From Nitrosopumilus sp. (GTDB lineage Archaea; Thermoproteota; Nitrososphaeria; Nitrososphaerales; Nitrosopumilaceae): a stretch of 64,000 bases of DNA. The stretch spans positions 2,720,001 to 2,784,000 of the forward strand of contig OZ243974.1 of assembly GCA_965214775.1 (NCBI GenBank), given 5' to 3'. A program made the position numbers and the translations under genes. A model generated the notes under the pieces. The model worked only from the letters and a program-made list of their open reading frames with translations. It was not told where the DNA came from and did not search any database. Within the stretch, counting starts at the first letter, position 1; every line of letters starts with the position of its first letter. This document shows, in pieces, positions 5,097-56,710 of the stretch.

Positions 5097-5260
5097 TAGT
5101 GCTCGCATCAAAAAAACGGATCACAATTTTGAATGCATCGTGCCTATTTCGATAAAAAAATATCCGATTTTCAACCGATCATCTGATCTTTGTAAGCATG
5201 GGCTCTGATACGGGTGCCTATTTCGATAAAAAAATATCCGATTTTCAACTATGTGCACTG
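5097..5260. mobile_element. TAGT...ACTA-type (IS630-like) MITE containing a 36-bp duplication plus insert
   Basis: Colinear with 48554-48640 once one repeat copy and the 38-bp insert are removed. Confidence 0.6.
5140..5249. repeat. 36-bp direct repeat pair flanking a unique 38-bp insert (site 1)
   Basis: GTGCCTATTTCGATAAAAAAATATCCGATTTTCAAC at 5140-5175 and 5214-5249, 36/36 identical. Confidence 0.95.
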
Positions 5261-5375
5261 GAATACCATGGTGAGTGGAGGATGTACTTTTCGCGGTACA
5301 TGAAGAACGGCAGACCCCGCCGATTGCATTCTGTGACAAAAAGATCACAGAAGTGATCAGAGAAAAAGACCCAAA

Positions 5376-5493
5376 GTAACAGGTTAGTCCCTGCCTAGAG
5401 TTGGAGTTGCATCCCTTGCCGGCCAAGCATGAAAATCACAACTGCAGGCAGATTCATGCCTGATTGCTGCCTAGGCAGGGGCTATCCTGTTAC
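5376..5493. mobile_element. IS66-type MITE (GTAAC...GTTAC)
   Basis: About 23-bp imperfect TIRs; perfect 8-bp TSD GACCCAAA. Confidence 0.85.
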
Positions 5494-5527
5494 GACCCAA
5501 AATGGATGGAGAGAGACACCGATGAAT

Positions 5528-5638
5528 GTAACTGATCGGGTTCTGGAAGTCGTTTCCGATTTTAAGCACAGATTCTGTTTGATCGGCATGCATCAGTAGC
5601 AAAATTCGTGCCTGAACTTCCAGAGCCCGAGCTGTTAT
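5528..5638. mobile_element. IS66-type MITE family B, degenerate
   Basis: Homologous to 31299-31408 with decayed TIRs. Confidence 0.7.
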
Positions 5639-5706
5639 CTATGAGATTACCTGACAAGTGTGCAAAAAAATCGGGTATTTGTGCGGTTTCTAATTTCGGA
5701 TCATCT

Positions 5707-6135
5707 CTAAGCACTACAGCTCTCAAACGAACCTGCCTGACTATCATAATAGGCACAATAACGAACGATCAGGCTGTCAACTCCAACCTCACCTATCACG
5801 CCTCCCAGTCCAGAGGATGACAGATCGATGTCGGCCCAGACAACCTCCCCTGGTGCAATCTGCAGGTCATAAGACAGGTCAGCAGCTCCAACCTCGTTGT
5901 CGCCGTCATAAAACCGCACGTCGGCACGATTCAGAACCGCCTCTACGTTGCCGAGGTTTTCCATACAAATGCTAACACGGAGATCAAGTCCCTCCATGTC
6001 CGCCCCGTAACCGCAATATGCAACGTCGGCAAAAGCCTTGTTCTGTTCGACGTCCGTCGAGATCTGTCCAAGAAGTGCAGACAGAACGCCAATTATGGCA
6101 ACGCCAACAATTACTAGTACTATCTTTTTTCCCAC
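5707..6135 (-). CDS. Membrane-anchored/secreted protein, possibly LEA_2-like beta-sandwich
   Basis: N-terminal hydrophobic helix, acidic beta-rich body with ENLGNV...IAPGE pattern and four Cys. Confidence 0.55.
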   Translation of the reverse strand: MGKKIVLVIVGVAIIGVLSALLGQISTDVEQNKAFADVAYCGYGADMEGLDLRVSICMENLGNVEAVLNRADVRFYDGDNEVGAADLSYDLQIAPGEVVWADIDLSSSGLGGVIGEVGVDSLIVRYCAYYDSQAGSFESCSA

Positions 6136-6221
6136 GGTAACGCTTGCAGAATTTCTATTTAACCACGTTGTTTGTGGCGGGGTTGTCCAAAAAATTTCCT
6201 CAAAATGACCGCTAAGCTTAT

Positions 6222-6710
6222 AGACGCTATATGAAATCTTATCAGTATCCTGTGATATACAATTACCGTTGGGCCTGAGAGTCGATATGATCTTACCATG
6301 TACAAGGGTGTCTTACAGACTGACTCGCAACAGCAGGCGGAAAGCAATGTACCGCGCAGACGGTGAATGGGAGATTCCGCCCGGATCAGGCATTTTGATC
6401 AAAAAGGAGGTGATAACATGATCAACGTAGGAATAGACGTACACAAAAAGACATGCGTTGCAGCAGTAAAGGACGACTCTGGCAAGCTGCTAGAGCGATC
6501 CAAGTTTGAGAACAGCGTTTCTACAACAACGAATTTTGCAACAGACCTCAAGGCACAATACCCTGGACAGCTGTCAATCATGGCAGTATGCGAGTCCACT
6601 GTCACGCAGAGAAAGTATAAGAGGATGCATCGCTTAGCAACATCGTCCTGATTCGGAACACTGAGCTGGCAAGGGTCCACGGTAGGATTAGGTACGATTT
6701 CATATGGGAG
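6222..6710 (+). mobile_element. IS110 copy A, internally deleted (non-autonomous), both ends intact
   Basis: Ends match copies B/C; AG core at 6222-6223 and 6709-6710; recombinase deleted between CEST and TQRKY. Confidence 0.92.
6240..6382 (+). ncRNA. Putative bridge RNA of IS110 copy A (alternative target guides)
   Basis: Same stems as copy B; guides ATGATCT (6287-6293) and CTTACAG (6312-6318) match its own flanks CTTAT-AG-ATCAT; transcript ends not determinable. Confidence 0.7.
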
Positions 6711-6765
6711 ATCATGGGCGTAATACGCCGAAAACAATTTTGATCAGCCGATCCTGGCTATTTCA

Positions 6766-7678
6766 ATGAGTAACAACAGAAAGAACACAGAATACTACCG
6801 ACTCTACGAGCAAAAGCGCAGGCAGGAGAGCCCCCGCAAGAAGAGGGCAAGGAAGAACCTGGGAAAGATCGTGCGCAGGGTGGCCAAGAAGATGGCGGAC
6901 AAAACGGGAATCGATGCCAAACTTGCATGGTCTGCCATACGCATTGCGATCCTCAGGATCGAGAACCACCTGTCCTACAGGATCATGGCCACGCATCTGG
7001 AGACAAATCCGGACGATCTCAGGAGGTGCGGCCTGGACCACACACTCTCCAAGTCCACCATACACAACAGGGTGAAGATGCTCTGGGAAATGGGCAAGGA
7101 CTTTATGGACGAGGTCGTGCTGGCCATGTCAGACGGCGAGCGCATAGCGGACCTGCATGGTGACTCGACGGGGTTTGGCCTCCGCAAGTACAAGAGCTGG
7201 CATCATGCCAAGTACGGGGAGATGACAGGACACGACTTTGCAAAGCTGCACATAGCAGGTGCAGTAGGAGGCAGGATACTGTCATTTGAGGCCACGCCTG
7301 GTACATCGGCCGACTCGCCGGAGTTTGCCCGCATGTTTTCCCGCATTCCAAAGGGAGGATACGGCATAGTGGCGCTGGATTCGGCATACGATTCGTACAA
7401 AAACTGCGAGCTGATTGCAAAAAGCGGCCGCGGACCTGCCATAAAGCCGGCAAAGGGAAACGAAAAGCCTTGGCGGGTTCAGTCCCCGGGCCAAGATGCT
7501 GCAGTGGCTGCGTGACAGGCCAGACGAGTTCTGGCGCGCCTATCACATGAGGAGCCAGGTAGAGGCCCTGTTCTCGGCAATGAAGGAAAGGACTGGATCC
7601 GTCCTGCGCTCAAAGCTGGACGGAACCATTACAGTCGAGCTGTTCGCTCGCGTGTTGTGCTACAACCTTACGGTATAA
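6766..7678 (+). pseudogene. IS5-family DDE transposase, frameshifted near 7470
   Basis: DSTG, ALDSAYDS and YHMRSQVEALFSAMK motifs split over ORFs 6766..7515 and 7496..7678. Confidence 0.82.
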
Positions 7679-8152
7679 TTTTTATCATAATTCCGTACTG
7701 TTGTTGAACCGCAGCACTACCGTAAGGTATGGCCCGCATGGATATTTACGTTGCCTTTTGCGCATGGCCGGCCGAAAATGTCCCGTTCTGCATCTGAATT
7801 TACATACATACGGGGGCAGACTGGCAGATTATGGCAGCCTCTTGGAAATTTTTTGGACAACCCCGTTTGCGGCTCTTTCCACTTCCTCACTTCCGGGCTT
7901 TCATCCAACTGCCAATCCATAATTTGAGGCCCCGTTTTTGACTTGGGTTGATCAGCTGCTGCCACATGTACAGTTAAAAACCAAATATTCTTGTGTCAAA
8001 ATAGGCATCATAATACAATGACAATGCTATAATCCGCCATTTGGTTGACGTACTGAGCATTTGTGTGTCTTAGAAAGAAGGTACAAGAAGGTCTCGCCAC
8101 CACTTGGTAATTAAACACGAACTACATGCAACTATGGCTTTCATGCTAGTCA

Positions 8153-8319
8153 GAGAGATGATTCGAAATTAGCAGATTCGGATCATGCATAAACGAATTT
8201 ACGTTATTAAATCGACTAAAAGATTCACAAATGACAAGTCGTCTGCAAGATTACTCGATTGGCAAGCGTACAGAAAAATCCGGGTATTTGCACGGTCTCG
8301 AATTCCAGCAGATCACCCA
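8153..8319. mobile_element. MITE family A, long variant, reverse orientation
   Basis: Starts GAGAGATGATTCGAAATTAGCAGATTCGGAT, the reverse complement of the family A right end. Confidence 0.6.
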
Positions 8320-8394
8320 TCAATAATTGTGGCTGGATCAAGAAGAATTTCAATGAATCATATGACAAGAAGGATTCACAGATTCTTGCATCGA

Positions 8395-9624
8395 TTATTT
8401 TATCTTCTTGTTTAGTTCTGTGATGAATTTTCTTATTTTTGGTTTTGGAATGACTGCGCCACATGCTTTATCGTGTCCTCCACCAGAGCCTCCAAGGTCA
8501 GTTGCCAAAACATTAACAATTTTTCCCAAGTGAACTTTGCAGTCCTTAGAGCCTCTTACAGATACTGCATAGATTCCATGGTCAACACGCTCTTTGTACG
8601 CAATCCCAACGTCTTTGCCAGACAATCCCATTACAAAGTTGACAGCTCCGCTTGCGCCAGAGTCTAGAATTTCCATGTAGCCAAGATTCTTCATTGTTTT
8701 CATTCCATCCTTTACTTTGGCAATCATTTGTGATAGTTTTTCAACCTGGATCTGTGCAAACTCAAACGTGTTTGGAATTTCATGTGGGAATTTTGAATTC
8801 GCAAGCTCCTCTACCAAATACAACAGATAGTCCGGTTCTTTTTGGTGTCCAACGATATTGTAAGTAAGAACAGTTGCACTGATTAGTGCAAATTGCCTGT
8901 CGTAGATTTGAAGCAGTTTTGAGCCAGTTGGACGGTCCTCCATATAATCAGTAATTGCAGCACATGCTGCGACAAATGACGCATGATCATTGAGTTTTGA
9001 TTTGAATGCAGAATAAACTTGGACTGCGGTACATTCATGGATATCATGAATTACTTTGACTTTGAGTCCCTCTAATGCTTTGACAACATTAGGGTCAATG
9101 TCATGGTGGTCAATGTAAGTGACTGCTACTTTGTTTTTTCTCAATGTGGACATAATATTGATAAATTCATCCTGAGTCTTTTTGCTAAGACCCAGATCGC
9201 AAACGTAGAGGGATTTTAGTTTTTCATCTAGTGCTGCCTGACTTAATGCCTCCATCTGCCCCGGATAATCTACAAGAATTGCATCACCACCAAATGCCTG
9301 CCTTACCAAAGCAGCTGAGCTAATTCCGTCTGCGTCTTCCTTGTGAGAGATGCAGATTACTTTGGTGCGCTTTGGTTTTGCAGTTTTTTTAACAGCTTTC
9401 TTTGCAGTTGTCTTTTTTGCTGTCTTTTTGGGTGCTGTCTTTTTGGGTGCTGTCTTTTTGGGTGCTGTCTTTTTGGGTGCTGTCTTTTTGGGTGCTGTCT
9501 TTTTGGGTGCTGTCTTTTTGGGTGCTGTCTTTTTGGGTGCTGTCTTTTTGGGTGCTGTCTTTTTGGGTGGTTTCTTGGCTACTCTTTTGGCAGTTTTTTC
9601 AGTTGTTTTTTTAGATCCTACCAT
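8395..9624 (-). CDS. DHH/DHHA1 phosphoesterase-family protein with Lys-rich histone-H1-like N-terminal tail
   Basis: SHKEDADG, DLG, IDHH and SGGGHDKACG motifs; PKKTA repeats. Confidence 0.88.
   Translation of the reverse strand: MVGSKKTTEKTAKRVAKKPPKKTAPKKTAPKKTAPKKTAPKKTAPKKTAPKKTAPKKTAPKKTAPKKTAKKTTAKKAVKKTAKPKRTKVICISHKEDADGISSAALVRQAFGGDAILVDYPGQMEALSQAALDEKLKSLYVCDLGLSKKTQDEFINIMSTLRKNKVAVTYIDHHDIDPNVVKALEGLKVKVIHDIHECTAVQVYSAFKSKLNDHASFVAACAAITDYMEDRPTGSKLLQIYDRQFALISATVLTYNIVGHQKEPDYLLYLVEELANSKFPHEIPNTFEFAQIQVEKLSQMIAKVKDGMKTMKNLGYMEILDSGASGAVNFVMGLSGKDVGIAYKERVDHGIYAVSVRGSKDCKVHLGKIVNVLATDLGGSGGGHDKACGAVIPKPKIRKFITELNKKIK
9419..9568. repeat. Perfect 15-bp tandem repeat x10 (encodes PKKTA)
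   Basis: GCTGTCTTTTTGGGT repeated ten times. Confidence 0.97.
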
Positions 9625-9671
9625 TTCATTTGGAAAAATTACAGACCCTCATTTAAATGAAGAATGGAAAA

Positions 9672-9881
9672 TTATTTCTTTGATTTTTTGACGCTCTGCT
9701 CAACTAACGAACCAGAGTCAAGACACACATCATAAAGGGACAGGCCCTCAAGTTGAGTTTCTGAATCAATGGATTGTATCTTTTCTAATTCCTCTGGTGA
9801 GGCATTGATTACCAGGTCGTCTAGTTTTTGCAAACGTTCTCGCTCTTTTGGAGTCATTAGTTTTTGATTAAAAATTCTCAT
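9672..9881 (-). CDS. Small hypothetical protein
   Basis: 69-aa ORF filling the gap upstream of the DHH gene, host-like composition. Confidence 0.5.
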   Translation of the reverse strand: MRIFNQKLMTPKERERLQKLDDLVINASPEELEKIQSIDSETQLEGLSLYDVCLDSGSLVEQSVKKSKK

Positions 9882-9973
9882 TTATGGCCAAATGTTGCCA
9901 TATTAGACTAAATGCTGAACTTGGGAGACATTTTTTTGCGAAAACATAATAGAACAGTTCAGGTAGGCTCGGC

Positions 9974-11137
9974 ATGGAGACCAAAAATATCGGCCTAAGA
10001 GGAATCGAGGTGGCAGATACGAGGATTTCCAACATTGATGGGGAAAAAGGCAAGCTGATCTATCGTGGCTATGACATTTTAGATCTCACAAAAAATTCCA
10101 CATTTGAAGAAACCGCATTTCTGTTACTTTATGACCACCTTCCAACCAAACTGCAGTTAGACGAATTTACTGCAAAACTGGTTGATGCCAGATTCATTCC
10201 AAAGCAGATGCAAAAGAACATGGGCAACTGGAGAAAGGATGCAGACCCAATGGACATGCTTCAGGCATTCGTTTCAGCTCTGGCAGGATACTATGATGAA
10301 GAGTTTGCCAGCAAGGAAGCAAGTTATGACAAAGCGATCAACCTCATTGCAAAGGTTCCGACAATCATTGCAAGCTGGCAGAGGATCAGAAACGGGCTGG
10401 ACATTGTTGATCCAGACTCCTCTCAAAGTCATGCTGCAAACTTCCTATACATGATGTCAGGAGAAAAGCCAGACCCCGAAGTCGAGAGGGTTTTTGACGT
10501 GTGTCTTATTTTACACGCAGATCACACATTTAACGCATCTACATTTACAGCTAGACAGGTCGCATCGACTAGAGCTCACATGTATTCTGCATCAAGCGCA
10601 GCAATAGGGGCACTAAGCGGGGAATTGCACGGAGGGGCAAACACCGAAGTCATGAAGATGCTTTTAGAGATCGGGGAGGTTGGCAAAGTAGAAGAATGGA
10701 TAAAAAAGAATCTTGACGGCGGTCAAAGAATCATGGGAATGGGTCATGCAGTTTACAAGACATATGACCCAAGAGCACAGGTTCTAAAGGAACTATCAAG
10801 GAAACTTGCAGAGAAGACCAAAGAGAGATGGTTTGACATGACAGAAAAGGTAGAGACGGCAACCATCTCCCACATGAAATCTCAAAAAGGCAGAGACATT
10901 TATCCAAACGTGGATTTGTACAGTGCATCAATTTACTACATGCTAAAAATCCCAGTCGATCTGAACACGCCGATCTTTGCAATCTCCAGGGTTGCGGGAT
11001 GGGCAGCTCACATCATCGAAGAAAAGTTTGCAGAAGCCGCACCAAAGCCGGCACTGTACAGGCCAAAGGCAGTTTATGTCGGAAAGTATTGCGGGCCGCA
11101 AGGTTGCAAATATCAGACACTAGACTTGAGGAAATAA
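9974..11137 (+). CDS. gltA: Citrate synthase
   Basis: GLRGI, LHADHTFNAST, GELHGGAN, GMGHAVYK..DPR, YPNVDLYS motifs. Confidence 0.96.
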   Translation: METKNIGLRGIEVADTRISNIDGEKGKLIYRGYDILDLTKNSTFEETAFLLLYDHLPTKLQLDEFTAKLVDARFIPKQMQKNMGNWRKDADPMDMLQAFVSALAGYYDEEFASKEASYDKAINLIAKVPTIIASWQRIRNGLDIVDPDSSQSHAANFLYMMSGEKPDPEVERVFDVCLILHADHTFNASTFTARQVASTRAHMYSASSAAIGALSGELHGGANTEVMKMLLEIGEVGKVEEWIKKNLDGGQRIMGMGHAVYKTYDPRAQVLKELSRKLAEKTKERWFDMTEKVETATISHMKSQKGRDIYPNVDLYSASIYYMLKIPVDLNTPIFAISRVAGWAAHIIEEKFAEAAPKPALYRPKAVYVGKYCGPQGCKYQTLDLRK

Positions 11138-11140
11138 TCT

Positions 11141-11347
11141 TTAATTTCTTGTGCCAAGCCAATCTTTTGCCTTAGAGTTCACATCATATTTGTACAAAAC
11201 TTCAAAGACCATATCATAAAATGAGATGCCTTTTTTCTGGGCCTGATCATCTAACCACTTTATTCCGTCAGCCAGTTCAGGATCATACTCTGAGAATTCG
11301 ACTAGTTCGTCTACTATCCTTGAGAAGCAGGTGCGGGATTCAAGCAT
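11141..11347 (-). CDS. Small conserved hypothetical protein (likely start MLESRTC)
   Basis: C-terminal 68 aa of ORF 11141..11428; similar ISFYDM motif to the 9672..9881 protein. Confidence 0.55.
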   Translation of the reverse strand: MLESRTCFSRIVDELVEFSEYDPELADGIKWLDDQAQKKGISFYDMVFEVLYKYDVNSKAKDWLGTRN

Positions 11348-11874
11348 AGTTGTACATTTCAATCTGTGATCATAAGGGATGTATTCAAAATATGTTGATA
11401 AAAAACCACTTTTTGATTGACTTATCATACTGTTAATTAACGATGGTCACGCCTGTTGATGTATGAGAGAGGGTATATAATCATACTACAGGGTGGTCGT
11501 CCCGTTCTAGGACGTCTGCGACAGGCACAATCATTCAAAGCGCCTGACCAGGATGCTCTCAAAGTTTGACACCGCCGGTATGGAGATTCGGCCCGTAGAG
11601 TACCGGGAGAGATACCGCGACGAGTTCGGCGGTGGCATAGCTCTGGCGTCTCGATGTTGGTGTTGAGGTGCTCATGACTATCCCTATCTTGTCCTGCGTA
11701 TTCCATGTTTTCTTGGTCATTTTGTGATTCGACCTCCTTATTCAAAAAGTGTGCATTGCAGATCGTTCCTTCTTTTTTGGGGTCCGCACCAGATCGTAGC
11801 CACATGTGTCTCAAAAACAAAGTTCAGAGGGTGTCAGAATAAACGGCAATGCAAACAAACTACCCCAGAAAGGA

Positions 11875-16025: not shown

Positions 16026-16027
16026 TT

Positions 16028-23811: not shown

Positions 23812-24344
23812 AGGGACGCCAAGGCGTGTCTCAGTGGACCGGACAAGCTGTCCCGGGAGGATCTGCTGGAGCTTGAGGAGAGGACGGGGATAAGGGCCGC
23901 CGACGGATTGATGGGCCGGCACTCGTCGGAGCTGCGCCGGCTGTTTGAGACTAGGATGCGCAACGTCCTGTTCGGATACAGGGATACGCAGGACGAATCG
24001 TTGAAAACTCTTGTCAGGAGGATGTACAATGCCCTGCCGGGCCTGTTTGCATTCCTAGAATACGAGGACGTCGAGCCCACCAACAATTCTGCAGAGCGGG
24101 CGCTGCGCCCCGTCGTATTGCAGAACAAGATAAGCGGCCAGATCAAGATGACAAGCTCGGGCAGATCCTTGAGGCATAGTCCGTGTCGTATTGCAGGACA
24201 AGATAAGCGGCCAGATCAAGGGCGGCCTGGTCTGGATGGACAGGTACGGATGGCTCAACACATGCACCTCGACGTGGAAGCTGCAGGGCAAGTCCATCAT
24301 GGTTGAGGTAGCCAGAATAATTTATGGGGTAGGTGACCTCATAC
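23812..24344 (+). pseudogene. IS66 transposase 3' remnant with right end
   Basis: EPTNNSAERALRPVVLQNKISG motif; end GGGGTAGGTGACCTCATAC. Confidence 0.8.
24112..24220. repeat. 36-bp direct repeat pair flanking a unique 37-bp insert (site 2)
   Basis: GTCGTATTGCAG(A/G)ACAAGATAAGCGGCCAGATCAAG at 24112-24147 and 24185-24220, 35/36. Confidence 0.95.
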
Positions 24345-41485: not shown

Positions 41486-42343
41486 ATGGCAGGGGCAACG
41501 GCTATTGTCCACGGGGCAATCTCACTTGTAAATGCAATTGCCACACAAAAAGGCGCGACACTGGGAATCGACCTCAAAGTAAGAGTGACAGTCGAGGCAA
41601 ACAAGGGGGGGAGGGGAATCTCAATCCGCTCTGAAAACAAGAGTTTGAGTTCAAGACTGATCAACAAGACAGTAGAAAAAATAATTCCAAAAAACGAACT
41701 GCATAAAAACAAGATTGTAGTCACGCTTAATTCGGAAATTCCAACAGGATACGGACTGAAAAGCTCCAGCGCGATATCCTCAGCAGTTGCGCTGGCATGC
41801 GCTAAAATTTTCAAGCCAAAATTGACAGATCAGCAGGTTATTCTTGCAGGAGTTGATGCCTCAATCGAGTCCAAAGTAAGCATTACTGGCGCATATGATG
41901 ATGCATGCTCATGCTATTACGGCGGCTTTAACGTTACAGACAATGCAAAAAGGAAGAGGGTTCGGTTCGAAAGAGGACCAGCAAGCCTAAGAGCGGTGAT
42001 TTTTATTCCAAGAGATCGCAGACGTGGAAACCTCAAAAAACTCAAGATGTTATCCTCGGTGTTTGATAGTGCGTGGGAGCTGGCAAGAAAGGCAAACTAT
42101 TGGGAGGCAATGATCATCAACGGGTTGGCAACTGGATCAACCCTAAACTCTGATCCTAAAATAATCGCCGCGTTGGTCGAAAAGGGCGCACTGGGCGCAT
42201 CTGTTTCAGGAAACGGGCCGTCGATTGCAGCAGTTACTACAAAAGAGAATGAGTATAACGTCAAAAAGATATTTTCGTCTCTGGATGGCAAGATCATTGT
42301 TTCAAAAATAAGCAACAAAAAGGCAGAAGCTCACGAGTTGTAG
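41486..42343 (+). CDS. aroK: Archaeal shikimate kinase (GHMP family)
   Basis: PTGYGLKSSSA, SITGAYDDA, SGNGPS. Confidence 0.93.
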   Translation: MAGATAIVHGAISLVNAIATQKGATLGIDLKVRVTVEANKGGRGISIRSENKSLSSRLINKTVEKIIPKNELHKNKIVVTLNSEIPTGYGLKSSSAISSAVALACAKIFKPKLTDQQVILAGVDASIESKVSITGAYDDACSCYYGGFNVTDNAKRKRVRFERGPASLRAVIFIPRDRRRGNLKKLKMLSSVFDSAWELARKANYWEAMIINGLATGSTLNSDPKIIAALVEKGALGASVSGNGPSIAAVTTKENEYNVKKIFSSLDGKIIVSKISNKKAEAHEL

Positions 42344-42985
42344 AATTTCAAAATCAGGGATTTTACGAGAACAGTTGGTCCTCATAACAGAGGATGATAC
42401 ACAGGGCGATTTTCCTTGCATCCTAGCAGAAAAAGAGAGCCAAAAAGAGAGTACGGCAGAAAATGGCATCCTACTGCTGCCGCCATCATCATCATCATCA
42501 TCAATAGCAGCAGACACCAGATCCGTCATGGAAACATCCACGAAATTTGGCGCAAAGACAGATAATTATTGAGCCATATCCGGCGATTGAGCGGCAGAAC
42601 GATGGAAACATCCACGAAATTTGGCGCAAAGACAGATGCCATCAAACAAGACCGTTTTGCAAAAAAATCAGATAAAAAAATGGAGATAAAGAGGCGCGAC
42701 CCTGTATAGAGGAATGAAAAGCCTTCTCTTCACCCTCAACGCCTTTTGCGTATACAACATGCCTTTTTCGCAGAGCCGCGCAAACTATGCGTTAAAAATT
42801 GCATGTTTTTCCATATATCGTATGAGTTATCATCATATTTAAGAATATATTGTAAATATTTGATATAATCAGACTAGTTATTGTAAATTTTAAAGATGTG
42901 TAGATATTGATGAAAAGGATGGCAGTTACGCAAAAGTTTTTCAAATTTTTCAGAATGAGGAATTATAAGCATCATCTTGCAACGA
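42333..42985 (+). pseudogene. aroA: Decayed EPSP synthase (aroA) remnant
   Basis: Between aroK and aroC; residual HRAIFLAS and ADT...KFGAK in broken frames; putative start reads ACG; much shorter than a full gene. Confidence 0.65.
42528..42637. repeat. 36-bp direct repeat pair flanking a unique 38-bp insert (site 3)
   Basis: ATGGAAACATCCACGAAATTTGGCGCAAAGACAGAT at 42528-42563 and 42602-42637, 36/36. Confidence 0.95.
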
Positions 42986-42988
42986 TAG

Positions 42989-44086
42989 GTGTTGCCCGGA
43001 AGTTCTATTGGCCACCGCCTTGTTCTAACCAGTTTTGGAGAGAGTCACGGAAGAACAGTCGGAGCGGTTCTAGACGGGTTTCCGGCAGGACTAGAGGTTG
43101 ACGAGAAAGACATCCAAGGAATGTTAGATCAGAGAAGGCCCGGTCAGAACCTAATCTCAACGCAAAGAAAAGAGGGGGACGTCGTAGAAATTCTCTCCGG
43201 AGTTTTCAGAGGACATACAACAGGTGCCCCAATTACAATGTTGGTCTGGAACGGTGATCAAAAATCAAGGGATTATGAAAATTTGAGGACAAAGCTTCGT
43301 CCAGGTCATTCAGATTATCCTGCAATGATAAAGTACGATCACCAAAACGACTACAGAGGGGGCGGAAGGTTTTCTGGAAGAATGACGGCTACACACGTAA
43401 TGGGAGGGGCCCTTGCAAGAAAACTTCTCAAGGTGACACTAGGAATCGAGACAAACTCGTTTACATCACAGATTGGAAAGGTGAGGATGGGCAGAAGATT
43501 CAACGGTAAAATGATTGACTCTATTTATAAAAACGATGTAAGGTGTCCTGAAACTAGAATTGCAAAGATAATGAGGGAGAAGATTTTAGAGGCAAAAAAG
43601 AGGGGGGATTCGCTTGGAGGAATAATCGAATCGGTTACAACAAACGTTCCCGTAGGATTGGGTGAGCCGATCTTCAACTCCCTAGAGTCTGATTTGAGCA
43701 GGGCGATGTTCTCCATTCCATCTGTAAAGGGCGTGGAGTTTGGTTCAGGGTTTGAAGGCGCTGAACTATTTGGCTCAGAGAACAATGATTTGTATACAGT
43801 AAAAAGGGGAAAAATTGTTACAAGGACAAACAATTCAGGCGGAATCCTGGGAGGCATCTCCAACGGCATGCCAATTACAATGAAAGTTGCATTCAAGCCA
43901 GCATCATCAATTGCTCAAAAACAGAGCACAGTAGACATCAAAACCAAGAAAGAAACAGTATTACAGGTCAGGGGAAGGCATGACCCCTGTGTTGTGCCCC
44001 GGGCCCCGCCTGTTGTCGACTCCCTAGTTGCACTAACCATAGCAGATCACGCGTTATTGGCAGGAGCAATCAAGCCGGTACTGTAA
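42989..44086 (+). CDS. aroC: Chorismate synthase
   Basis: FGESHG, RPGHSD, GGGRFSGR, GGILGGIS, GRHDPC. Confidence 0.97.
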   Translation: MLPGSSIGHRLVLTSFGESHGRTVGAVLDGFPAGLEVDEKDIQGMLDQRRPGQNLISTQRKEGDVVEILSGVFRGHTTGAPITMLVWNGDQKSRDYENLRTKLRPGHSDYPAMIKYDHQNDYRGGGRFSGRMTATHVMGGALARKLLKVTLGIETNSFTSQIGKVRMGRRFNGKMIDSIYKNDVRCPETRIAKIMREKILEAKKRGDSLGGIIESVTTNVPVGLGEPIFNSLESDLSRAMFSIPSVKGVEFGSGFEGAELFGSENNDLYTVKRGKIVTRTNNSGGILGGISNGMPITMKVAFKPASSIAQKQSTVDIKTKKETVLQVRGRHDPCVVPRAPPVVDSLVALTIADHALLAGAIKPVL

Positions 44087-44089
44087 GAA

Positions 44090-46347: not shown

Positions 46348-46352
46348 CGGAA

Positions 46353-50174: not shown

Positions 50175-50342
50175 ACTATGTATGCACTACGACACGAAGG
50201 CAGATGCACAGGCTTTTACGTGTCAATCAAGCCAAAGCGCATCCACCTCAACAGGGTTTATCCGAAAAAGTATTTCCGTAGTCAGCAGCTTCAATTCTAA
50301 ATCCTTGCAGAAAGGGATTGATCTTATCATGACTGAATTCAG

Positions 50343-50677
50343 TGTTGAACTGGACCCCGTATTTTCGAACCACTTTTTGGGCATTTTTGAGTAGCTCTGA
50401 CATCATTTGCCTGCCTCCCTTTGGTGCCGTACGATGAACTCCATCGGAGTGAGATATCCAAGCGAGGAGTGTATTCTATCGTGATTATAGTCCCTAAATG
50501 CCTCCTTTATGACGTCTGAGGCGTCCTGGAAGGAGTCAAACTCATGGGGCCACAGGTATTCCCTCTTGATGCTTCCGTGAAACGACTCTATGTGGCCGTT
50601 TTGCTCTGGCGTCCTGTATGCTATGAGCTCGTGCCTGATTCCCAGCTGTTTTAGGGACTCCCTGAACATACGCGATG
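50343..50677 (-). pseudogene. IS3-family 3' remnant with terminal repeat
   Basis: TPEQNGHIESFHGSIKRE, YNHDRIHSSLGY; end TGTTGAACTGGACCCC. Confidence 0.82.
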
Positions 50678-51247
50678 TGTATTATATGAAAATTATGTCG
50701 CACCATCACCGGTATCCTCCTCCATCCATTTCGGGTTGCTTTTCCTGATCGCATCTGTGGCCTTCCTGTCGCAAAATGCCCGCAGAGGCGTCTCGTAGTT
50801 GTCTATATCCAGCGACCAGTGCAGTCTGTCCTCGTTGTAATAGCCGATATATGCAGACAGGCTCTCGTGGTTCCATATCTCCTCCTCGATGCTCCTGTGG
50901 AAGCGCTCCAGCCTGCCGTTGGTCTGCGGGTGATACGGCCTGGAGCTTGTCAGCTCGATTCCGCAGTCGAGCAGCTCCTCCTCCTCAAAGGCAGTGGGCC
51001 TCCACACGCCCTTGGGCGGATTCTTCTTTTTCTTTGGATCCGAGCGCGCCCCGACAAAGCACTTGCCGTTGTCTGAGAGGATTGTGGCAGGCGCGCCGAA
51101 CCGGGCCACGGCCTGCCGCAGGACCGCCATGACGTTCTCCGAGGTGGCCTCCCAGAACAGGCCCGCACCGGTCACGCACCTGAACGAGTCGTCCAGAAAC
51201 GTGACCAGGCTGGGCCCTGCAAAGCGCGGATCCTTCATGGTATGCCA
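50678..51247 (-). pseudogene. IS481-family 3' remnant
   Basis: DDSFR, SDNG, HPQTNGRLERFH, YNEDRLH; TGT terminus at 50678. Confidence 0.8.
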
Positions 51248-51409
51248 TAATCAATTCATAAAAAAACGAACAATTTTGACAACTGCTTTTGATCCAAACA
51301 TTAAGATCATGCAAACCATCGCACATGCATGGGAAAACAGGCAGAATTTGTGGCATCCAGGGACAAATTCCTGGCAAGCAAAGTACTCACGTCTTCGCAA
51401 GGCGTACTA
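51248..51409. mobile_element. MITE family C
   Basis: Reverse homologue of 26036-26194. Confidence 0.72.
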
Positions 51410-51499
51410 GACCCGACAGTATGGAACACGACAGTTATTACTGCAGTAGTTAATTCGTGTATGTGGGGTTTGACATGCTGCCACACAAGACTCTACAAT

Positions 51500-53034
51500 A
51501 GACTTTATGCGTAATCGACCGTGATTAAAAATTCCGTAGGCTTTTCCAAACGCAAATGCGCTGATCGGATCAAATTACCGCATGCATCTCGTGTCATGAC
51601 GCACGTAAAAGCCAGTTGCGCCAAAAGAACGTGCGCAACCATGCAGCACGGCAGTGTGCCCCGTTGACAAGTCAGAAAGAATGGCGGTCCGTACCGCCGT
51701 ATGTCATGTGTCTGGCAGCAGATGCAGCTGCTGCAGCAGCTGGCCATAGTATTTTTTCCTTTTCAACATCGTCTTGAGGTTCTCAAGACCCGTGATTATC
51801 TGCATGAAATAATTGAGATCCTTGGCAGTTCCGCCAAACGGCATGGTAAGAATGCCATATCTTTTGAGCCGCCCTATGTGGTGCTCCACCCTGACGCGAA
51901 CCCTGCTTATCTGCTTGCGGCGCCTCTTTTGCGTTGCAGTAAGATCCCCGTCCCTGGGCTTCTTTGGGGGCTGCCTGTGTATGGCGCCCGGAAGCATCTT
52001 TTGAATGCCCTCAAATCCCAGGTCGCTGTAAATCACAAACGCCTCTTCCGGATCGTCTGCGTTTTTTGCATTCCTCATTGATCCGGTGTGCCTTCCAAAG
52101 TCCGGGCCGCCCCCTGCGTTCATCACGCCCTTGTCGTTGACGCTTCCGTCCACAGTCTTGCCGCAGTGCAGTATGAGGCCGTCCAGGTTCGAGGTAATTA
52201 TCGTGTTGAACATGTGCCGCTTTTTTCTTCCCGAGTATCTGGTCTTTCTTGCGGTCCTGTCCCCGGGCCTGTCTACCGGAGTCAGGGTGCCGTCAATCAG
52301 GAGCGTCTTTTTTGGGATCAGCACCTCCTCCAGCTTGCCTGCCGGGGTCTTGCAGATGATGCTTGCTAGCTTTTCGGAGGCAGGCAGGAGCCGGCGCAGT
52401 AACACGGCACCGTACCGGAGGTACCTGGACATTGTGGACTGGTCGACGTCAAACGTTGCGGCCAGATGATGCTGCGTTGCCTTGGTCCTTATGCTCATGA
52501 GTACTGCAAGCAGCGCGTGCCTGATGTACAGCTTGCACCGGTTTCCGGCATCGCCGCCTCTTACGTCGTCCTCCCAGAACAGGGGCCTGTCCTCGTCGTC
52601 CATGACTTCTTCCGTAAAGCGCTCCAGTATGATCGTAAATGACTCCTTTGTGCATCCCGTGACGTTGCGAAGGCGCACCGGATCGCCGATTATGCCGTCT
52701 GCAACCTCGATTGCGTGCATCCGCAGAGGCGTCCCGCCGCGCACGACTCTTTTTGTCTTGTTTTCTTCGGACTGCCACAGTGAGTCCTCAAACGCAAGCT
52801 GCTTCCTCATACGCTCGTTTTGCTTGGACATCTGTTTGTTTTGCTTGGATACCTGCTCGTGTTGCTCGACTAGCATCTCGTGTTGCGCTTGTAACGCTTG
52901 AAATGCTTGGAGAGTCTTGTCATTTGAGCCCATACAGTTAGGGAATCATACAGATCTTTAGGGTTGTTGGTGTGCAAATAATGATCTATTGTGTCGTATT
53001 TTTAGATCAGATGGGCCGATTACGCATAAAGTCT
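51500..53034 (-). mobile_element. IS5-family (ISL2-like) element, copy 2
   Basis: Same TIRs and length as copy 1; 3-bp TSD AAT. Confidence 0.9.
51704..52933 (-). CDS. IS5/ISL2-like DDE transposase
   Basis: Few substitutions relative to 48844..50073. Confidence 0.9.
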   Translation of the reverse strand: MGSNDKTLQAFQALQAQHEMLVEQHEQVSKQNKQMSKQNERMRKQLAFEDSLWQSEENKTKRVVRGGTPLRMHAIEVADGIIGDPVRLRNVTGCTKESFTIILERFTEEVMDDEDRPLFWEDDVRGGDAGNRCKLYIRHALLAVLMSIRTKATQHHLAATFDVDQSTMSRYLRYGAVLLRRLLPASEKLASIICKTPAGKLEEVLIPKKTLLIDGTLTPVDRPGDRTARKTRYSGRKKRHMFNTIITSNLDGLILHCGKTVDGSVNDKGVMNAGGGPDFGRHTGSMRNAKNADDPEEAFVIYSDLGFEGIQKMLPGAIHRQPPKKPRDGDLTATQKRRRKQISRVRVRVEHHIGRLKRYGILTMPFGGTAKDLNYFMQIITGLENLKTMLKRKKYYGQLLQQLHLLPDT

Positions 53035-53036
53035 AA

Positions 53037-54040
53037 TATGGAACACGACAGTTATTACTGCAGTCAGCCCATCAAATATCGGAACATCTTTACCGGTAGG
53101 ATCTCTCCGCTGGCAAACAGATTCCGCACGGACTGCTCCATCTCATCAAGCGTATCAAACACCTTGGCAGACAGCCTCCGCTTTATCTCCCTCCACTGTA
53201 TCTCTACAGGATTGAGCTCCGGCGTGGACGGCGGCAGGTACTCCAGCATTAACTCGCCCTTGTACTTTTCCAGCGTCTTTTTTACGCCGACAGACTTGTG
53301 GTATGACGCATTATCTAGGAATATCAACACCTTTCCGTATTTTTCGTGCAGATTTTCCAAAAAGTCGCAAAAGCTGTCGGTGTTGGTCTTGTCATAGAAC
53401 ATATGGTAGAATATACCGACTGCCAGCACGCCGAAGATGTACCGGCGCTGCCGTGACAGCGTCAAGGGCGCCGTGATGCTCATGCCGCGCCTGAACCACC
53501 CATGTTTGGGGCTATTTGAGGTCTTTTGTATGGATGACTCGTCTTCTGTCATTACCGTATACCCTTGTGCCTCCTTTTCCCGTATCAGCTCCTGGGATGC
53601 CTCCTCGAACTCGTTCTGCTTGCGTTTTGAGGCGGACTTTGGGTTCTTTGGCCTTGATTTCTTCCAGGAGAACCCAAGCTCGTGTGCCAGCAGCCGCGTG
53701 CCGCTCTTGCTGTATTCTATGCCGAACTTCTTTTTGATGTGCCGCCTTATCAGGCCCGAGTCCCACAAACTGCTCTCAAAGCCGCACTCCTCTGATCCTG
53801 ACTTGAGATCCGCCTCAAGCTGTTTCAGCTGCGACTCACTCAGCTTGTGCTTGCGTCCCCTGCCTGGCCGCTCATGCCTTGCGCGTATTCCCTCGTCCTG
53901 CGCGCGGATGAGCCACCTGGATATGGTGGAATGTGCCCGGTCGAGGTTCTTTGCTATCTGTTCTGTATCGAGGTCGTCCTTGCGCTGCATGTATGCCAGC
54001 AACCTGTCGCGCTTTCTCTTGTCTGTCTCCTTTTTGTACG
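53037..54040 (-). mobile_element. IS630-family element, 5'-truncated by neighbouring IS630
   Basis: EDES, DNASYH, PELNPVE; ORF 53064..54092 reads out of the adjacent element end. Confidence 0.85.
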
Positions 54041-56282
54041 TAGTATCCTCGGCTACCAATTGATCACAAAAAGGACAATTTTTTTCAACCAAAGGATCTA
54101 AGAGCTATTAGTCCCATATATACACATGAAAGGAAAGAAGGAATTACCGACGGGAACAGCGTTCCTGTACGGGATAGCAAGCAAGGACGAGCTTTTTAGG
54201 ATGCACAAGTCCGAGAAGGACGCCAAGGCGGCAATCCGGCTCCTTGCATACCACATGAGAAAGTGCGGCGCGAGCATATATGATATTGCCGAGAAGCTGA
54301 GCAGGCCGTATGGAACCGTACGATACTGGCTGGTGCGTGCGCACAAGCATGGCCTGGAGGGCAGGTTTGACATAAAGCATGGCGCCCCGTGCAGGCTCGA
54401 CAAGAAACAGCTTGAACGGCTGCGCGCAGACCTGATCAAGGGCCCGGACAACTGCGGCTTTAAGGCCACAACATGGACAGGGCCGCTGGTCATTGCCCAC
54501 GTCAAAAAGAAGTTCGGCATCACGTATGCAGAAACGAGCATGTACGACCTGCTGCACAGAATCGGCTTCTCATGCAGAAAGCCCAGGCCAAAACACCCAA
54601 AATCAGCCTCAGAATCCGAGAAAAAGGAGTTCAAAAAAAAGCTAGGCAGAGCGCAAAGTACTATTCAAAAAAGGGGTACACGGTAATGATAGGCGACGAG
54701 TCCATGTTCATACTGGGATGGAACGTCAAGAACAGCTGGTACCCCGTAGGAGAGCCGGTCTATACGCCCGTCAGCCTGTCCAGGAAGGTTCTATGTCATA
54801 GGGGCCCTCTCAAGAAACAGGTTTGACTATAGCAATGATCAGAAGTCTTTGAGCCAAAACGGGATCATTCGAAAAGTATATGGATCGCCTAACCGGCGCA
54901 ATGACATGGCAAAAGAAACAGACAAAAGCCTGTCAGAGGCCATGCGCAAAGAAAAGGATGTCAAAGTCTACAAGAAGATCATGGCGCTGATGTTTGTGCT
55001 AGAAGACGACGTGGGCGTGCCTGAGACTGCAAGAAGGGTCCGGTGCAGTGAGAATTCCGTGCGCAACTGGCTGGCGAGGTTTTCGGAGGACGGCATAGAC
55101 GGTCTCCGGGATCTTCCCCGTTCCGGATGCAGGCCAAAGGTGGACAGAGAAAGTATTGCCGCCATAATGGACCTGTCCACTGCATGCAAAAGTACCGATG
55201 TTATGACGGTACGCGATGACATAAGGGATGCCACCGGGACAGAATACAGCACAGGACATGTCCGAAAACTGATGCGCCAGCACGGCCTGTCGCGCCGCAA
55301 GGTGCAAAACGTGCATGTCAACCATGCCACCCCAAGCTCCGTATACTCGTGGCAACGGTATCTTGAAAACGTGCGGATTCCGTGCCTGAAAAGAGAGGGT
55401 TTTACGCTGGTGTCATCTGATGAGGCGTTCTTCGTGCAGGGCGCATACGACAGATACGTGTGGGGTCCGGTCGGCACCAGAAGCGTGGCATCGTATTCGG
55501 GGGACCACACAAAGGTGGCCGTGTTTGGAAGCATCGCAGAAGACGGCAGAAGGCTGTTCAGGACGTTTACGGGATCGTTTAGGTCAGTGCAGTTCATACA
55601 ATGTCTGGAGGCGTTGCGCGCCAAGTTTGGCAAGGTTGCCGTCTTTTGCGACAGGTGGAGTGTGCACAGATCTATTGACGTCGCAGAATATCTGGCAGGT
55701 CATCCCGACATCAGGCTGATAATGATCCCGAAGGGATCGCCGTACCTCAATATCGTGGAAGAATGCTGGAACCTAGGCAAGCCTGTCGTTTTCAGGGGGA
55801 TAGTGTACAGGAAAATCAGCGAGCTACGGCATGCCATATCCGAGTACTACAGGACGGTGTCGTTTGCCCACCTTTGCATGTACAAGTACATTTACAGATC
55901 GCCGGTCAAAGCCCTCAATTACTTGTGACCGTTGCTATATCGCTTTTACGAAAAGGCCAACACGGGAACGTTCTACAAGTTTCTCAGGACACTGCGCCGC
56001 AAGTACGGCAAGGTGTTGTTGTTTGTCGACAACGCATCGTACCACAAGTCAGCAGAACTCAATGGAATGATGGCCAAGTGGAACGGGGACGTGGTGCTAA
56101 AGTACCTGCCGCCGTACGCGCCGGAGCTTAACAACTCGGAGGGGCAGTGGCGCGGGTTCAAAAAGGCGACTTCAAACTGCCTTTACAAGACCGTCAAGGA
56201 GATGCAGAGATCACTGCGCAGTATGACGCGCAGGGGCGAGATAAAGGTGGTAAAGATGAACAAATGGCTGACGTAGATACTA
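54041..56282 (+). mobile_element. IS630-family element (same as 24774-25909) interrupted by another IS630
   Basis: TAGTATC...GATACTA ends; orfA 54126..54686, orfB split at 54829/55938. Confidence 0.9.
54830..55937 (+). mobile_element. Nested IS630-family element with single-ORF transposase (54849/54907..55928)
   Basis: TAGCAATGATCA / TGACCGTTGCTA ends, TA duplication restores host GACTATCGC; SDEA, DRWSVH, SPYLNIVEECW. Confidence 0.9.
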
Positions 56283-56331
56283 CGTCTTGTGCAGGTAGGA
56301 GCGACTCGTATTTGGCAGGAATTTGCCCCCT

Positions 56332-56470
56332 GTGAGATGATCCGAAATTAGAAACCATACGAATTTTTCAAGTAATTTCACAGATAACTTGTATTTTGTT
56401 GACATTTTGAGCCGTTCTATGCAAATTAGTTCACAAATAATCCGAATCTGCTAATTTCGAATCAACTCTC
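56332..56470. mobile_element. MITE family A nested in a family C MITE
   Basis: Colinear with 23674-23811; family C sequence resumes on both sides. Confidence 0.8.
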
Positions 56471-56474
56471 TGAT

Positions 56475-56710
56475 GCCACAAACTCCTTTCTCTGTCTGTC
56501 CATGCATATGTCGTCATTACGACACTCCCCATCCCTCGAATAGTTAGGCCACAAACTCCTTTCTCTGTCTGTCCATGCATATCAGTACTTCCTAGGTGTA
56601 CTTTTACAGGCACGGTAATTACGTAATTTGGAGAAGATCTTATGCGTAAACGAAGTTAGCGGCTATGGCGTGCCGGGTCTGCAAAAACACATCTAGGAAG
56701 TACTGATATG
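56475..56710. repeat. 36-bp direct repeat pair flanking a unique 37-bp insert (site 4; second copy later hit by ISH3 MITE)
   Basis: GCCACAAACTCCTTTCTCTGTCTGTCCATGCATATG at 56475-56510 and 56548-56582 plus 56710. Confidence 0.92.
56583..56705. mobile_element. ISH3-derived MITE (123 bp) with intact TIRs
   Basis: CAGTACTTCCTAG(G/A)TGT TIRs, ATAT TSD; sub-terminal similarity to both ends of the 26638-31234 element. Confidence 0.88.

Follow-up and report, generated by a model that had tools for sequence, protein, structure and literature searches.

Probable natural off-target spacer integration in a Nitrosopumilus chromosome: 36-bp target duplications around spacer-sized inserts

The question raised by this locus is which process could place short, mutually unrelated DNA fragments between two copies of the sequence found at each site. 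The window, by which we mean the whole stretch of DNA analysed (64,000 nt of Nitrosopumilus sp., assembly GCA_965214775.1, contig OZ243974.1, positions 2,720,001-2,784,000 of the forward strand), was described in an earlier note as holding four 36-bp direct repeats around unique inserts of 37-38 bp, and direct reading of the sequence bears this description out (Table 1). Repeat identity ends at either side at all four sites, and the four host sequences are unrelated, as had been claimed, the 36-mers being mutually unrelated and the inserts likewise. The range of 56475-56710 that had been assigned to site 4 is correct for the unit itself as far as 56583, while the remainder belongs to an adjoining hairpin element. 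Site 1 is hosted by a short element present in many copies (109 BLAST hits), site 2 by what remains of the C-terminal part of a transposase of the IS66 family (PF03050, E 2.5e-11), and site 3 is located in unique intergenic DNA with a GHMP-kinase gene (41486-42343) on one side and a chorismate synthase gene (42989-44086) on the other.

Table 1. Target copies and inserts at the four sites of the window (positions are those of the window; genome positions are given where stated).
Feature	Positions	Strand	Match or remark
Site 1, first 36-bp target copy (GTGCC...TCAAC)	5140..5175	+	36/36 identity with 5214-5249
Site 1, insert, 38 nt, spacer-like	5176..5213	+	38/38 to genome 2445016-2445053
Site 1, second 36-bp target copy	5214..5249	+	36/36
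Site 2, first 36-bp target copy (GTCGTATTG...)	24112..24147	+	35/36, A/G at position 13
Site 2, insert, 37 nt	24148..24184	+	36/37 to genome 1599429-1599465
Site 2, second 36-bp target copy	24185..24220	+	35/36
Site 3, first 36-bp target copy	42528..42563	+	36/36
Site 3, insert, 38 nt	42564..42601	+	no source identified in genome and viral comparison
Site 3, second 36-bp target copy	42602..42637	+	36/36
Site 4, first 36-bp target copy	56475..56510	+	35 identical bases, last base mismatched
Site 4, insert, 37 nt	56511..56547	+	36/37 to genome 2615428-2615464
Site 4, second 36-bp target copy	56548..56583	+	35/36

A scan of the 2.83-Mb chromosome for closely spaced direct repeats no shorter than 28 nt, with the arrays excluded, yielded 18, 16 and 12 pairs at periods of 72, 73 and 74, respectively, while neighbouring periods other than multiples of 3 held mostly 0-3 pairs each. 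The genome-wide length plot that the earlier note had called for is therefore not flat and shows a sharp peak at 36 plus 36-38, and given this peak chance cannot be the source of the four units in the window. Filtering left 36 core units, with periods of 71 (three units), 72 (seven), 73 (14), 74 (11) and 76 (one). The duplication has a mode of 36 bp (apparent length 36 in 15/36; range 34-39) and, with the duplication taken as 36, the inserts measure 35-38 nt in 35/36 units and 40 nt in the remaining one. All core inserts are different, lack common ends, show no enrichment of C at the first base (11/36) and are too short to encode anything; the duplicated 36-mers are also unrelated among units, and they sit in ordinary genes, in IS elements or between genes. 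Thirteen more units were classed as atypical, with duplications of 26-33 or 43-46 nt.

Sister copies without interruption prove the polarity of insertion for 11 of the 36 core units, and an exact 72-nt gap in a paralogue does so for one atypical unit. Within the window, empty sites had been claimed for sites 1, 2 and 4. The claim is well founded for site 2, where eight sister IS66-type copies are uninterrupted (the best 97.1% identical over 312 nt) and a contig of one run (X1) passes directly from 24111 to 24185, so that exactly 73 nt (24112-24184) are missing; it holds more weakly for site 1, where two sister copies span the restored site at 83.5% and 76.8% identity, and it found no confirmation for site 4, the restored site being spanned by 0/209 hits. 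Nor are the units confined to dispensable DNA, as had been supposed, since 16/36 core units lie inside open frames of at least 150 aa, which is a depletion as compared to the 75.1% for frames of this length (p 1.2e-4). Some of these frames are broken and some remain open through an in-frame 72-nt insertion, three of the four core 72-nt units within such frames leaving the frame open; a restriction-endonuclease-domain protein and glycosyltransferases are represented among the broken frames and 24-residue in-frame insertions.

The inserts had been considered foreign, but those of sites 1, 2 and 4 copy distant loci of the same chromosome, and at least 14/36 core units and 21/52 candidates were found to carry self-derived inserts (E<=1e-4), with a perfect match over the full insert length for five of them. 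Slippage from adjacent host sequence is ruled out, as the sources are situated 161 kb to 1.3 Mb from the inserts; that of the site 1 insert maps 18 kb away from the midpoint of the CRISPR-cas locus. The longest genomic match of the site 3 insert is 13 nt, and its 24-nt core has no exact match in viral_contigs; two array spacer cores likewise gave no viral matches. TTN flanks were observed at 6/12 well-covered sources (~1.6 expected), three on one side and four on the other, and no consistent PAM is apparent at these 12 sources. None of the 78 array spacers matches its own genome, and such a difference from the many self-derived inserts is to be expected if a self-spacer is lethal within a functioning array and neutral at other places.

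The cas1, cas2 and cas4 genes that the earlier note had proposed to look for are all present, approximately 295 kb outside the window, in a complete type I-B operon (Cas1, Cas2, Cas4, Cas6b, Cas3, Cas5 and Cas7). A six-frame search identified exactly one Cas1 in the genome (PF01867, E 7e-69), and Cas1, Cas2 and Cas4 score above the NCBIfam cut-offs. True arrays were found with repeats of 36 and 37 bp and spacers of 34-39 nt, namely a cas-adjacent array of 68 repeats of 37 bp (spacer mode 35, mean 35.0) and an orphan array of 36-bp repeats and 36-39-nt spacers (mean 37.45), near which no cas genes are located. The duplicated target length of the units thus equals the length of the CRISPR repeat in the same cell (36 versus 36/37 bp). 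Neither array repeat has a copy within 10 substitutions elsewhere in the genome, and the units do not appear to represent functional CRISPR arrays, as they have no common repeat with a conserved 3' handle that Cas6 could recognise. An 11-mer common to the site 4 insert and the cas-adjacent repeat is also present in the genomic source of that insert and is therefore a chance match.

Comparison of the 36-mers with the arrays, also advocated in the earlier note, revealed a resemblance of the targets to the junction between leader and repeat in the cas-adjacent array, GGCT/GTCGTAATGAC (the stroke marks the junction here and below). The targets score a mean best match of 6.69/15, the null being 5.32 +/- 0.22 (z 6.2, 0/2000); taken alone, the repeat part reaches z 5.5 and the leader part z 2.9. 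The initial nine bases of the site 2 target agree with the start of the cas-adjacent repeat at 8/9 (junction score 9/15). A de novo EM motif in the targets has an information content of 9.27 (null 6.63 +/- 0.31), and the off-target sites have in common the junction-proximal motif CT/G...AATG. In a congener, G033, which harbours a Cas1 of 53% identity and an array of 36-bp repeats with a period mode of 71, six isolated units were found (duplication 35-37, insert 34-36), two of which have a perfect self source, and their targets match the same cas-adjacent junction with z 5.0 (0/2000). Cas1 was not found with the query used in a second congener, G058, and the first 800 kb of its 1.61 Mb contain no such units; the presence of units in the Cas1-bearing G033 and their absence from the scanned 800 kb of G058 are a correlation that would agree with a dependence of the events on Cas1.

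Judged from the sequence, the units very probably represent natural off-target Cas1-Cas2 spacer integration, one event each ('neo-CRISPR'), and the promiscuous Cas1-like integrase that had been envisaged as writing fragments across the chromosome is supported by the length peak, the presence of cas1, cas2 and cas4, the target motif and the non-adjacent sources. A Cas1-Cas2 complex loaded with trimmed DNA of ~36-38 nt, in many cases from the cell's own chromosome, would first attack a non-CRISPR site resembling a leader-repeat junction (roughly GCT/GTnGnAA) and then the opposite strand 36 bp away, and gap repair would duplicate the 36 bp between the attacks, resulting in target-insert-target. 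The persistence of the units would be due to the ordinary sequence of their 'repeats', which Cas6b should not recognise, so that self-derived inserts would cause no autoimmunity there, and selection would purge only those insertions that harm needed genes.

As the most likely enzyme we favour the resident type I-B Cas1-Cas2(-Cas4) module over a second adaptation module gone from the assembly, even if the choice is not settled because the inserts agree in length more closely with the orphan than with the cas-adjacent array. A second Cas1-Cas2 module that filled the orphan array, and that has since been lost or is carried on an extrachromosomal element outside the one-contig assembly, would explain why the units, with 36 bp and a mean insert of 37.0 nt, are indistinguishable from the orphan array (p 0.26) and differ from the cas-adjacent array (p 8e-11; still p 6e-5 with one base reassigned), and also why the orphan array is without nearby cas genes. 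We nevertheless consider such a module less likely, as a single Cas1 is encoded in the six frames, the targets match the orphan junction only at a non-significant z 1.8 as compared to z 6.2 for the cas-adjacent junction, and G033, with an orthologous I-B Cas1, has the same target motif. Moreover, the repeat copies are near-identical and five of the sources match their inserts perfectly from end to end, so the events are recent and the loss of the module would be more recent still. It is also conceivable, if somewhat doubtful, that one I-B integrase gives a target-dependent product, i.e. 37 bp and ~35 nt at the cognate repeat and 36 bp and ~37 nt at look-alike sites. Should this be true, final prespacer trimming and the far-side cut would follow target capture and be controlled by it, and the scars would constitute an unselected natural ledger of adaptation, in which self DNA is heavily sampled, perhaps with a concentration near the CRISPR-cas locus, and in which in-frame insertions that alter proteins and the earliest stages of array birth are recorded.

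A mechanism that does without Cas1, be it repair-templated insertion at breaks with staggered ends or the action of some unknown integrase or transposase that cuts with a 36-bp stagger, could accommodate the atypical units with their other duplication lengths, and the link between Cas1 and the events is one of sequence correlation. Such a mechanism is very unlikely in view of inserts that are mutually unrelated, without common ends and devoid of coding capacity, of lengths that track CRISPR repeat plus spacer in two genomes (73 in the present genome, G000, and 71 in G033), and of a target motif equal to the CRISPR leader-repeat junction; moreover, no transposase is known to give 36-bp duplications. 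A transposable element with a target-site duplication was rejected, as there are no shared ends and the inserts copy unrelated loci. An assembly or sequencing artefact might be suspected because no unit could be shown to be spanned by a read or contig of the strain-holding runs (at sites 1 and 2 the contigs break at the repeats), but is most unlikely given the exact 36-bp copies around inserts from such remote loci, the sequence motif carried by the units, their depletion from long frames, their recurrence in the independently assembled G033, and contigs of runs X3 and X4 that agree, without a single difference, with long unique parts of the window.

This kind of event is known already, while the number in one natural genome is unusual. 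Arrays located away from cas genes have reportedly been recognised by their CRISPR-like appearance, their repeats being similar to genuine ones. Off-target acquisition is, according to Shmakov et al., one of three origins proposed for such arrays and, unlike the isolated or mini arrays described there, the duplicated sequences reported here are never within 10 substitutions of either repeat. Neo-CRISPR loci formed by non-canonical spacer integration in the type I-E system of E. coli (Nivala, Shipman and Church 2018; cited in 10.1101/148544, PMC6698737 and PMC7054753) were, according to these citing texts, induced by Cas1-Cas2 over-production and oligonucleotide feeding, and for two other species the citing preprint (10.1101/148544) speaks of circumstantial evidence only. 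As in that account, spacer-sized DNA is found outside an array and a repeat-length target is duplicated to give a repeat-spacer-repeat unit; unlike in that account, the events here are natural, archaeal and set in a type I-B context, with at least 36 fixed in one chromosome and self sources that are traceable. Casposons measure kilobases, carry terminal inverted repeats and duplicate about 14-15 bp of their target. The units would share with them a Cas1-family integrase chemistry with target-site duplication, whereas their inserts are of 35-38 nt without common ends and a second Cas1 homologue was not found in the genome; casposons and their Cas1-family casposases are known in Thaumarchaeota, as stated in the cited excerpts (PMC8464041, PMC6563490). 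In the type I-B system of Haloarcula hispanica, as outlined in the cited sections (PMC4872114, PMC5416893), integration begins at the fixed leader-repeat junction, a motif ~10 bp into the repeat is required, and a ruler from a second motif sets the far cut, changed spacing leading to aberrant duplication sizes. The off-target sites described here similarly have a junction-proximal motif (CT/G...AATG) but, unlike in this canonical adaptation, they lack the rest of the repeat, are duplicated over 36 bp as compared to 37 bp for the cognate repeat, and have no evident PAM.

With at least 36 natural events, many of them with an identifiable source, a rarely seen error becomes a data set, and the scars would reveal, free of experiment, which targets an archaeal type I-B integrase prefers in vivo and what ruler it applies. 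The scars would also record capture before selection, as self inserts make up at least 39% of the core units and none of the array spacers, and this bears on self/non-self discrimination, that is, on the share exerted at capture versus the share exerted by later selection. A period scan set to each genome's repeat-plus-spacer length could gauge the prevalence of such events across prokaryotes, for which insertional mutagenesis would represent a cost of CRISPR carriage besides autoimmunity.

Reading each of the four window sites confirmed the earlier description of a 36-bp direct repeat around a 37-38-nt insert (see the table), with no kinship among the 36-mers nor among the inserts; the range first given for site 4, however, had taken in a separate short element outside the unit, which belongs to a family with ~200 BLAST hits in this genome (G000). 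A genome-wide scan of repeat lengths, proposed in the earlier note, was run on the single contig of G000 (2,833,656 bp, 47% G+C) over all periods from 30 to 160 with both CRISPR arrays excluded, and a period peak at 72-74 was found, as period 72 had 18 repeat pairs of at least 28 nt, period 73 had 16 and period 74 had 12, compared to mostly 0-3 at adjacent periods not divisible by 3. Removal of nine tandem-like pairs from 61 initial candidates (period 69-77, length at least 26) left 52, of which 36 with an apparent repeat of 34-39 and a period of 71-76 constitute the core set; the other 16 comprise three tandem coding repeats and 13 atypical units with a duplication of 26-33 or 43-46 nt. The window contributes four of the units, and no clustering was detected along the chromosome (8 gaps below 20 kb versus 7.9 expected, P 0.56). 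The apparent repeat length in the core is 36 (15 units), 37 (8), 35 (5), 38 (4), 39 (3) or 34 (1), values above 36 arising because chance identity adjoins the true 36-mer. With the duplication fixed at 36, the periods give inserts of 35 (3 units), 36 (7), 37 (14), 38 (11) and 40 (1) nt, with a mean of 37.0.

In the period histogram 81 further pairs fell at period 156 and 13 at 108, presumably from long tandem repeats in coding DNA; a small peak at period 82 is due to the internal repeat of a multi-copy element and bears no relation to the peak at 72-74. The locus with two inserts, a post hoc observation, may represent a neo-array after gaining a second spacer; its degenerate copy, with two substitutions and one deletion, is the furthest from the leader-like side, and two further units lie within 1 kb of it.

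Coordinates and structure of units, elements and CRISPR features in the window, in G000 and in the congener G033
Feature	Coordinates	Structure	Setting	Chromosomal copy of the insert
Site 1	window 5140-5175 + 5214-5249	identical 36-mers, 38-nt insert	in/beside multi-copy short element, 109 BLAST hits	2445016-2445053 (38/38)
Site 2	window 24112-24147 + 24185-24220	35/36 identical, 37-nt insert	C-terminal remnant of IS66-family transposase (PF03050, E 2.5e-11)	1599429-1599465 (36/37)
Site 3	window 42528-42563 + 42602-42637	36/36 identical, 38-nt insert	intergenic, GHMP-kinase gene / chorismate synthase gene	
Site 4	window 56475-56510 + 56548-56583	35/36 identical, last base mismatched, 37-nt insert	in/beside multi-copy short element, 209 BLAST hits	2615428-2615464 (36/37)
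Short element	window 56584-56708	17-nt inverted repeat at ends (cagtacttcctaggtgt ... acatctaggaagtactg)	directly after site 4	
Two-insert locus	G000:C1:1266832-1267014	one 36-mer three times, two different inserts (36 and 37 nt)		
Two nearby units	G000:C1:1266242; 1267835			
Unit in PMT_2 glycosyltransferase	G000:C1:2680484-2680593	73-nt unit		
Multi-copy element	G000:C1:249976, 885706, 903893, 1523218, 1943907, 2105962, 2276086	internal direct repeat, 33-39 nt, period 79-82		
Cas1	G000:C1:2426073-2426972, minus strand		cas operon	
Irregular units 61-65 of A2	G000:C1:2424477-2424825	spacers of 57, 29, 30 and 50 nt	near presumed leader end	
Orphan array A1	G000:C1:1977219-1978062	12 repeats of 36 bp, spacers 36-39 nt, last repeat degenerate		
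G033 mini-array	G033:C1:43914-44022	two repeats of 37 bp, one spacer		

The units are insertions. For 11 of the 36 core units, other copies of the repeated element around them carry one 36-mer and no insert; site 2 has eight such uninterrupted sister copies, of which the best reaches 97.1% over 312 nt. In the sequencing run X1 one contig joins window position 24111 to 24185, omitting exactly 73 nt, and in both X1 and X2 the right flank follows directly after the first repeat copy of site 2; the X1 junction probably comes from a related strain or from another copy of the IS. One atypical unit lies in an 834-aa glycosyltransferase/lectin-domain gene, and in a paralogue of this gene a gap of exactly 72 nt stands in the unit's place; paralogues were compared because no orthologue was found in the 12 congeners searched. 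Two further runs, X3 and X4, contain the strain (0.88-0.89 of sampled words), and among their contigs listed, which break at repeats, none bridges site 1 or 2 and none carries an empty allele, an outcome that counts neither for nor against the units.

The absence of cas genes from the window, stated in the earlier note, holds for the window but not for the genome, where a cas operon with the single Cas1 detected by a six-frame search stands elsewhere and encodes a 591-aa protein, Cas7, Cas5, Cas3, Cas6b, Cas1, Cas2 and Cas4. The 591-aa protein has no family hits and occupies the position expected for the large subunit, the operon as a whole being of type I-B. In genome_contigs the best match to its Cas1, at 52% identity, comes from a Thaumarchaeota MAG. 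The cas-adjacent array (A2) adjoins cas4 and contains 68 repeats of 37 bp with spacers mostly of 34-36 nt (mode 35). Its leader was placed at the cas4 side, because the minus-strand repeat ends in ATTGAAAC, which we take to be the usual 8-nt handle, and because the off-target sites mimic that flank. The 57-nt 'spacer' among the irregular units of A2 holds a degenerate repeat with an internal deletion. The repeat of the orphan array (A1) has a hairpin-forming core and a ATTGAAGC end.

Core targets were compared with the array junctions allowing both orientations and a few possible placements, random sites being given equal freedom. Against the A2 junction GGCT/GTCGTAATGAC the targets scored a mean of 6.69/15, as compared to 5.32 +/- 0.22 for random sites (z 6.2, 0/2000), with z values of 5.5 for the A2 repeat start alone, 2.9 for the last four leader bases alone, 1.8 for the A1 leader junction and 0.9 for the A2 far end with its flank. 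The A1 far end reached z 3.8-4.3, which may be explained by the G1 and the AATG at positions 6-9 that it has in common with the A2 start. The commonest bases in the oriented core were G(-3) in 18, C(-2) in 19 and T(-1) in 16 of the 36 targets, followed by G1 (21), T2 (21), G4 (19), A6 (22), A7 (17) and C11 (20), counts that the choice of orientation has raised; the unbiased measure is the null test. A reference-free EM motif attained 9.27 bits versus a null of 6.63 +/- 0.31 (maximum 7.55 in 60 trials), albeit with a different orientation for some units. This preference fits the integration pattern of the Haloarcula hispanica type I-B system as described in PMC4872114, where the leader-repeat junction fixes the start, a motif ~10 bp in is essential, and the far cut is independent of sequence and set by a ruler.

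The insert mean of 37.0 differs from that of the A2 spacers (35.0, p 8e-11), even with one base reassigned from the repeat to the spacer (p 6e-5), and is close to that of the A1 spacers (37.45, p 0.26). Mainly because of this 2-nt gap between inserts and A2 spacers, a second adaptation module, lost or unassembled, is kept as a rival maker of the units. Units with the best junction match tend towards shorter inserts (36.3 versus 37.4, p 0.026; rho -0.31, p 0.063), a trend that gives a weak hint of a mixture of units. With off-target integration by Cas1-Cas2, the reading we favour, the duplication of 36 rather than 37 bp can be explained if the ruler were to default to 36 bp wherever the repeat's far anchor is absent. 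In the congener G033 the cognate repeat is 36 bp and there is no insert-length discrepancy; by-eye alignment places a TAATGA block at +5 to +10 in both the G033 and the A2 repeats. A second cas module at A1 was rejected, as the nine genes upstream of this array contain no cas family; they matched LamG, type IV prepilin peptidase and, weakly, other families, with the LamG-domain and prepilin peptidase genes co-directional. An origin of the units as remnants of real arrays was likewise rejected, since no copy of the A1 or A2 repeat with at most 10 substitutions occurs in G000 outside both arrays; an 11-mer common to the site 4 insert and the A2 repeat is a chance match, the source locus carrying it too.

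The inserts had been described as foreign, but many are self DNA: 21 of 52 overall and 14 of 36 in the core match a distant locus of the G000 chromosome (E<=1e-4), with at least 85% of the length covered in 12 of the 14 and a perfect match over the full length in five (38/38, 37/37, 36/36, 37/37 and 38/38). Several stem from multi-copy IS or MITE sequences. Units whose insert has a single-copy source are separated from it by 161 kb to 1.3 Mb, a distance on which slippage or local copying was rejected. For the site 3 insert no source was found in G000, and its 24-nt core had 0 exact matches in viral_contigs, as was the case for the 24-nt cores of the A2 leader-proximal spacer and the first A1 spacer. 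None of the 78 A1 and A2 spacers matches G000, and this contrast with the inserts is as expected if adaptation often captures self DNA, in which case self-spacers would be purged from crRNA-producing arrays and tolerated where no crRNA arises. Of the 13 single-copy sources, six stand no more than 200 kb from the CRISPR-cas locus against an expectation of 1.84 (P 0.006, calculated post hoc), and two of these no more than 25 kb from it; they may mark a capture hotspot around the array, as reported in E. coli. TTN stands beside 6 of 12 well-covered sources (~1.6 expected), on the leader-like side in three and the far side in four, with one source in both counts; PAM selection is partial at best and orientation is not kept. 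Cas4 reportedly sets PAM, length and orientation. A PAM-derived first base as in E. coli was not supported, C starting 11 of 36 inserts (p 0.21).

The placement of all units in dispensable DNA, as previously proposed, did not hold either. When frames were read after restoring the sequence, open frames of 150 aa or more held 16 of 36 core targets, as compared to 75.1% of random 36-mers (p 1.2e-4), and frames of 300 aa or more held seven, versus 53.5% (p 3.6e-5). Units of 73 or 74 nt shorten frames, for example from 330 to 0, 551 to 114, 293 to 72 and 271 to 79 aa. Those of 72 nt can keep the frame open with 24 additional residues, as in a protein that combines Ig-like with Mrr restriction-endonuclease domains (591 to 615 aa), a second frame (543 to 567 aa) and an IS240-type transposase fragment (162 to 186 aa); atypical units with an open frame extend 810 to 834 and 240 to 264 aa. 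Across the unit in the PMT_2 glycosyltransferase a 547-aa frame is open, the restored sequence giving 461 aa, and the downstream portion is open in a shifted frame.

G033, labelled as the same genus, is a single contig of 1,699,898 bp (33% G+C) whose Cas1 is 53% identical and adjoins an array of 36-bp repeats, in which the period is 71 in 33 intervals, 72 in 20 and 70 in 10. Outside this array six isolated units were found, with duplications of 35-37, inserts of 34-36 and periods of 69-73, and two of the six inserts are matched perfectly, over their full length, by a source at another G033 locus. Their targets scored 7.83/15 against the A2-type junction of G000, versus 5.14 at random (z 5.0; 0/2000), and more weakly, z 1.1, against the junction of their own main array. 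The repeat of the G033 mini-array resembles that of A2 and not that of the G033 main array. In a second congener, G058, no Cas1 was found with the G000 protein as query, nor any unit in the first 800,000 of 1,612,089 bp, where by our arithmetic ~2.8 would be expected at the density of G033 and ~10 at that of G000.

Off-target spacer integration is a kind of event already known. Over-produced Cas1-Cas2 in E. coli reportedly generates 'neo-CRISPR' units at off-target sites (Nivala 2018, as cited in 10.1101/148544, PMC6698737, PMC7054753), evidence beyond E. coli is described as circumstantial and as concerning two other species (10.1101/148544), and off-target acquisition is one of three origins listed for arrays away from cas genes (Shmakov et al.). 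Neither a natural genome with dozens of off-target events nor an archaeal type I-B case was found in full-text searches of the literature, and 'off-target' and 'mini-array' had 0 occurrences in a survey of thaumarchaeal mobile elements (PMC6563490); similar natural examples may stand in the supplements of Nivala 2018 and Shmakov 2020, and priority for a natural case of dozens per genome is not certain. The earlier interpretation of ectopic spacer integration by a Cas1-like integrase is supported, with corrections as to self inserts, gene locations and cas genes, and the units of this Nitrosopumilus genome form a natural record, for the most part unselected, of how specific the integrase is and what adaptation captures.
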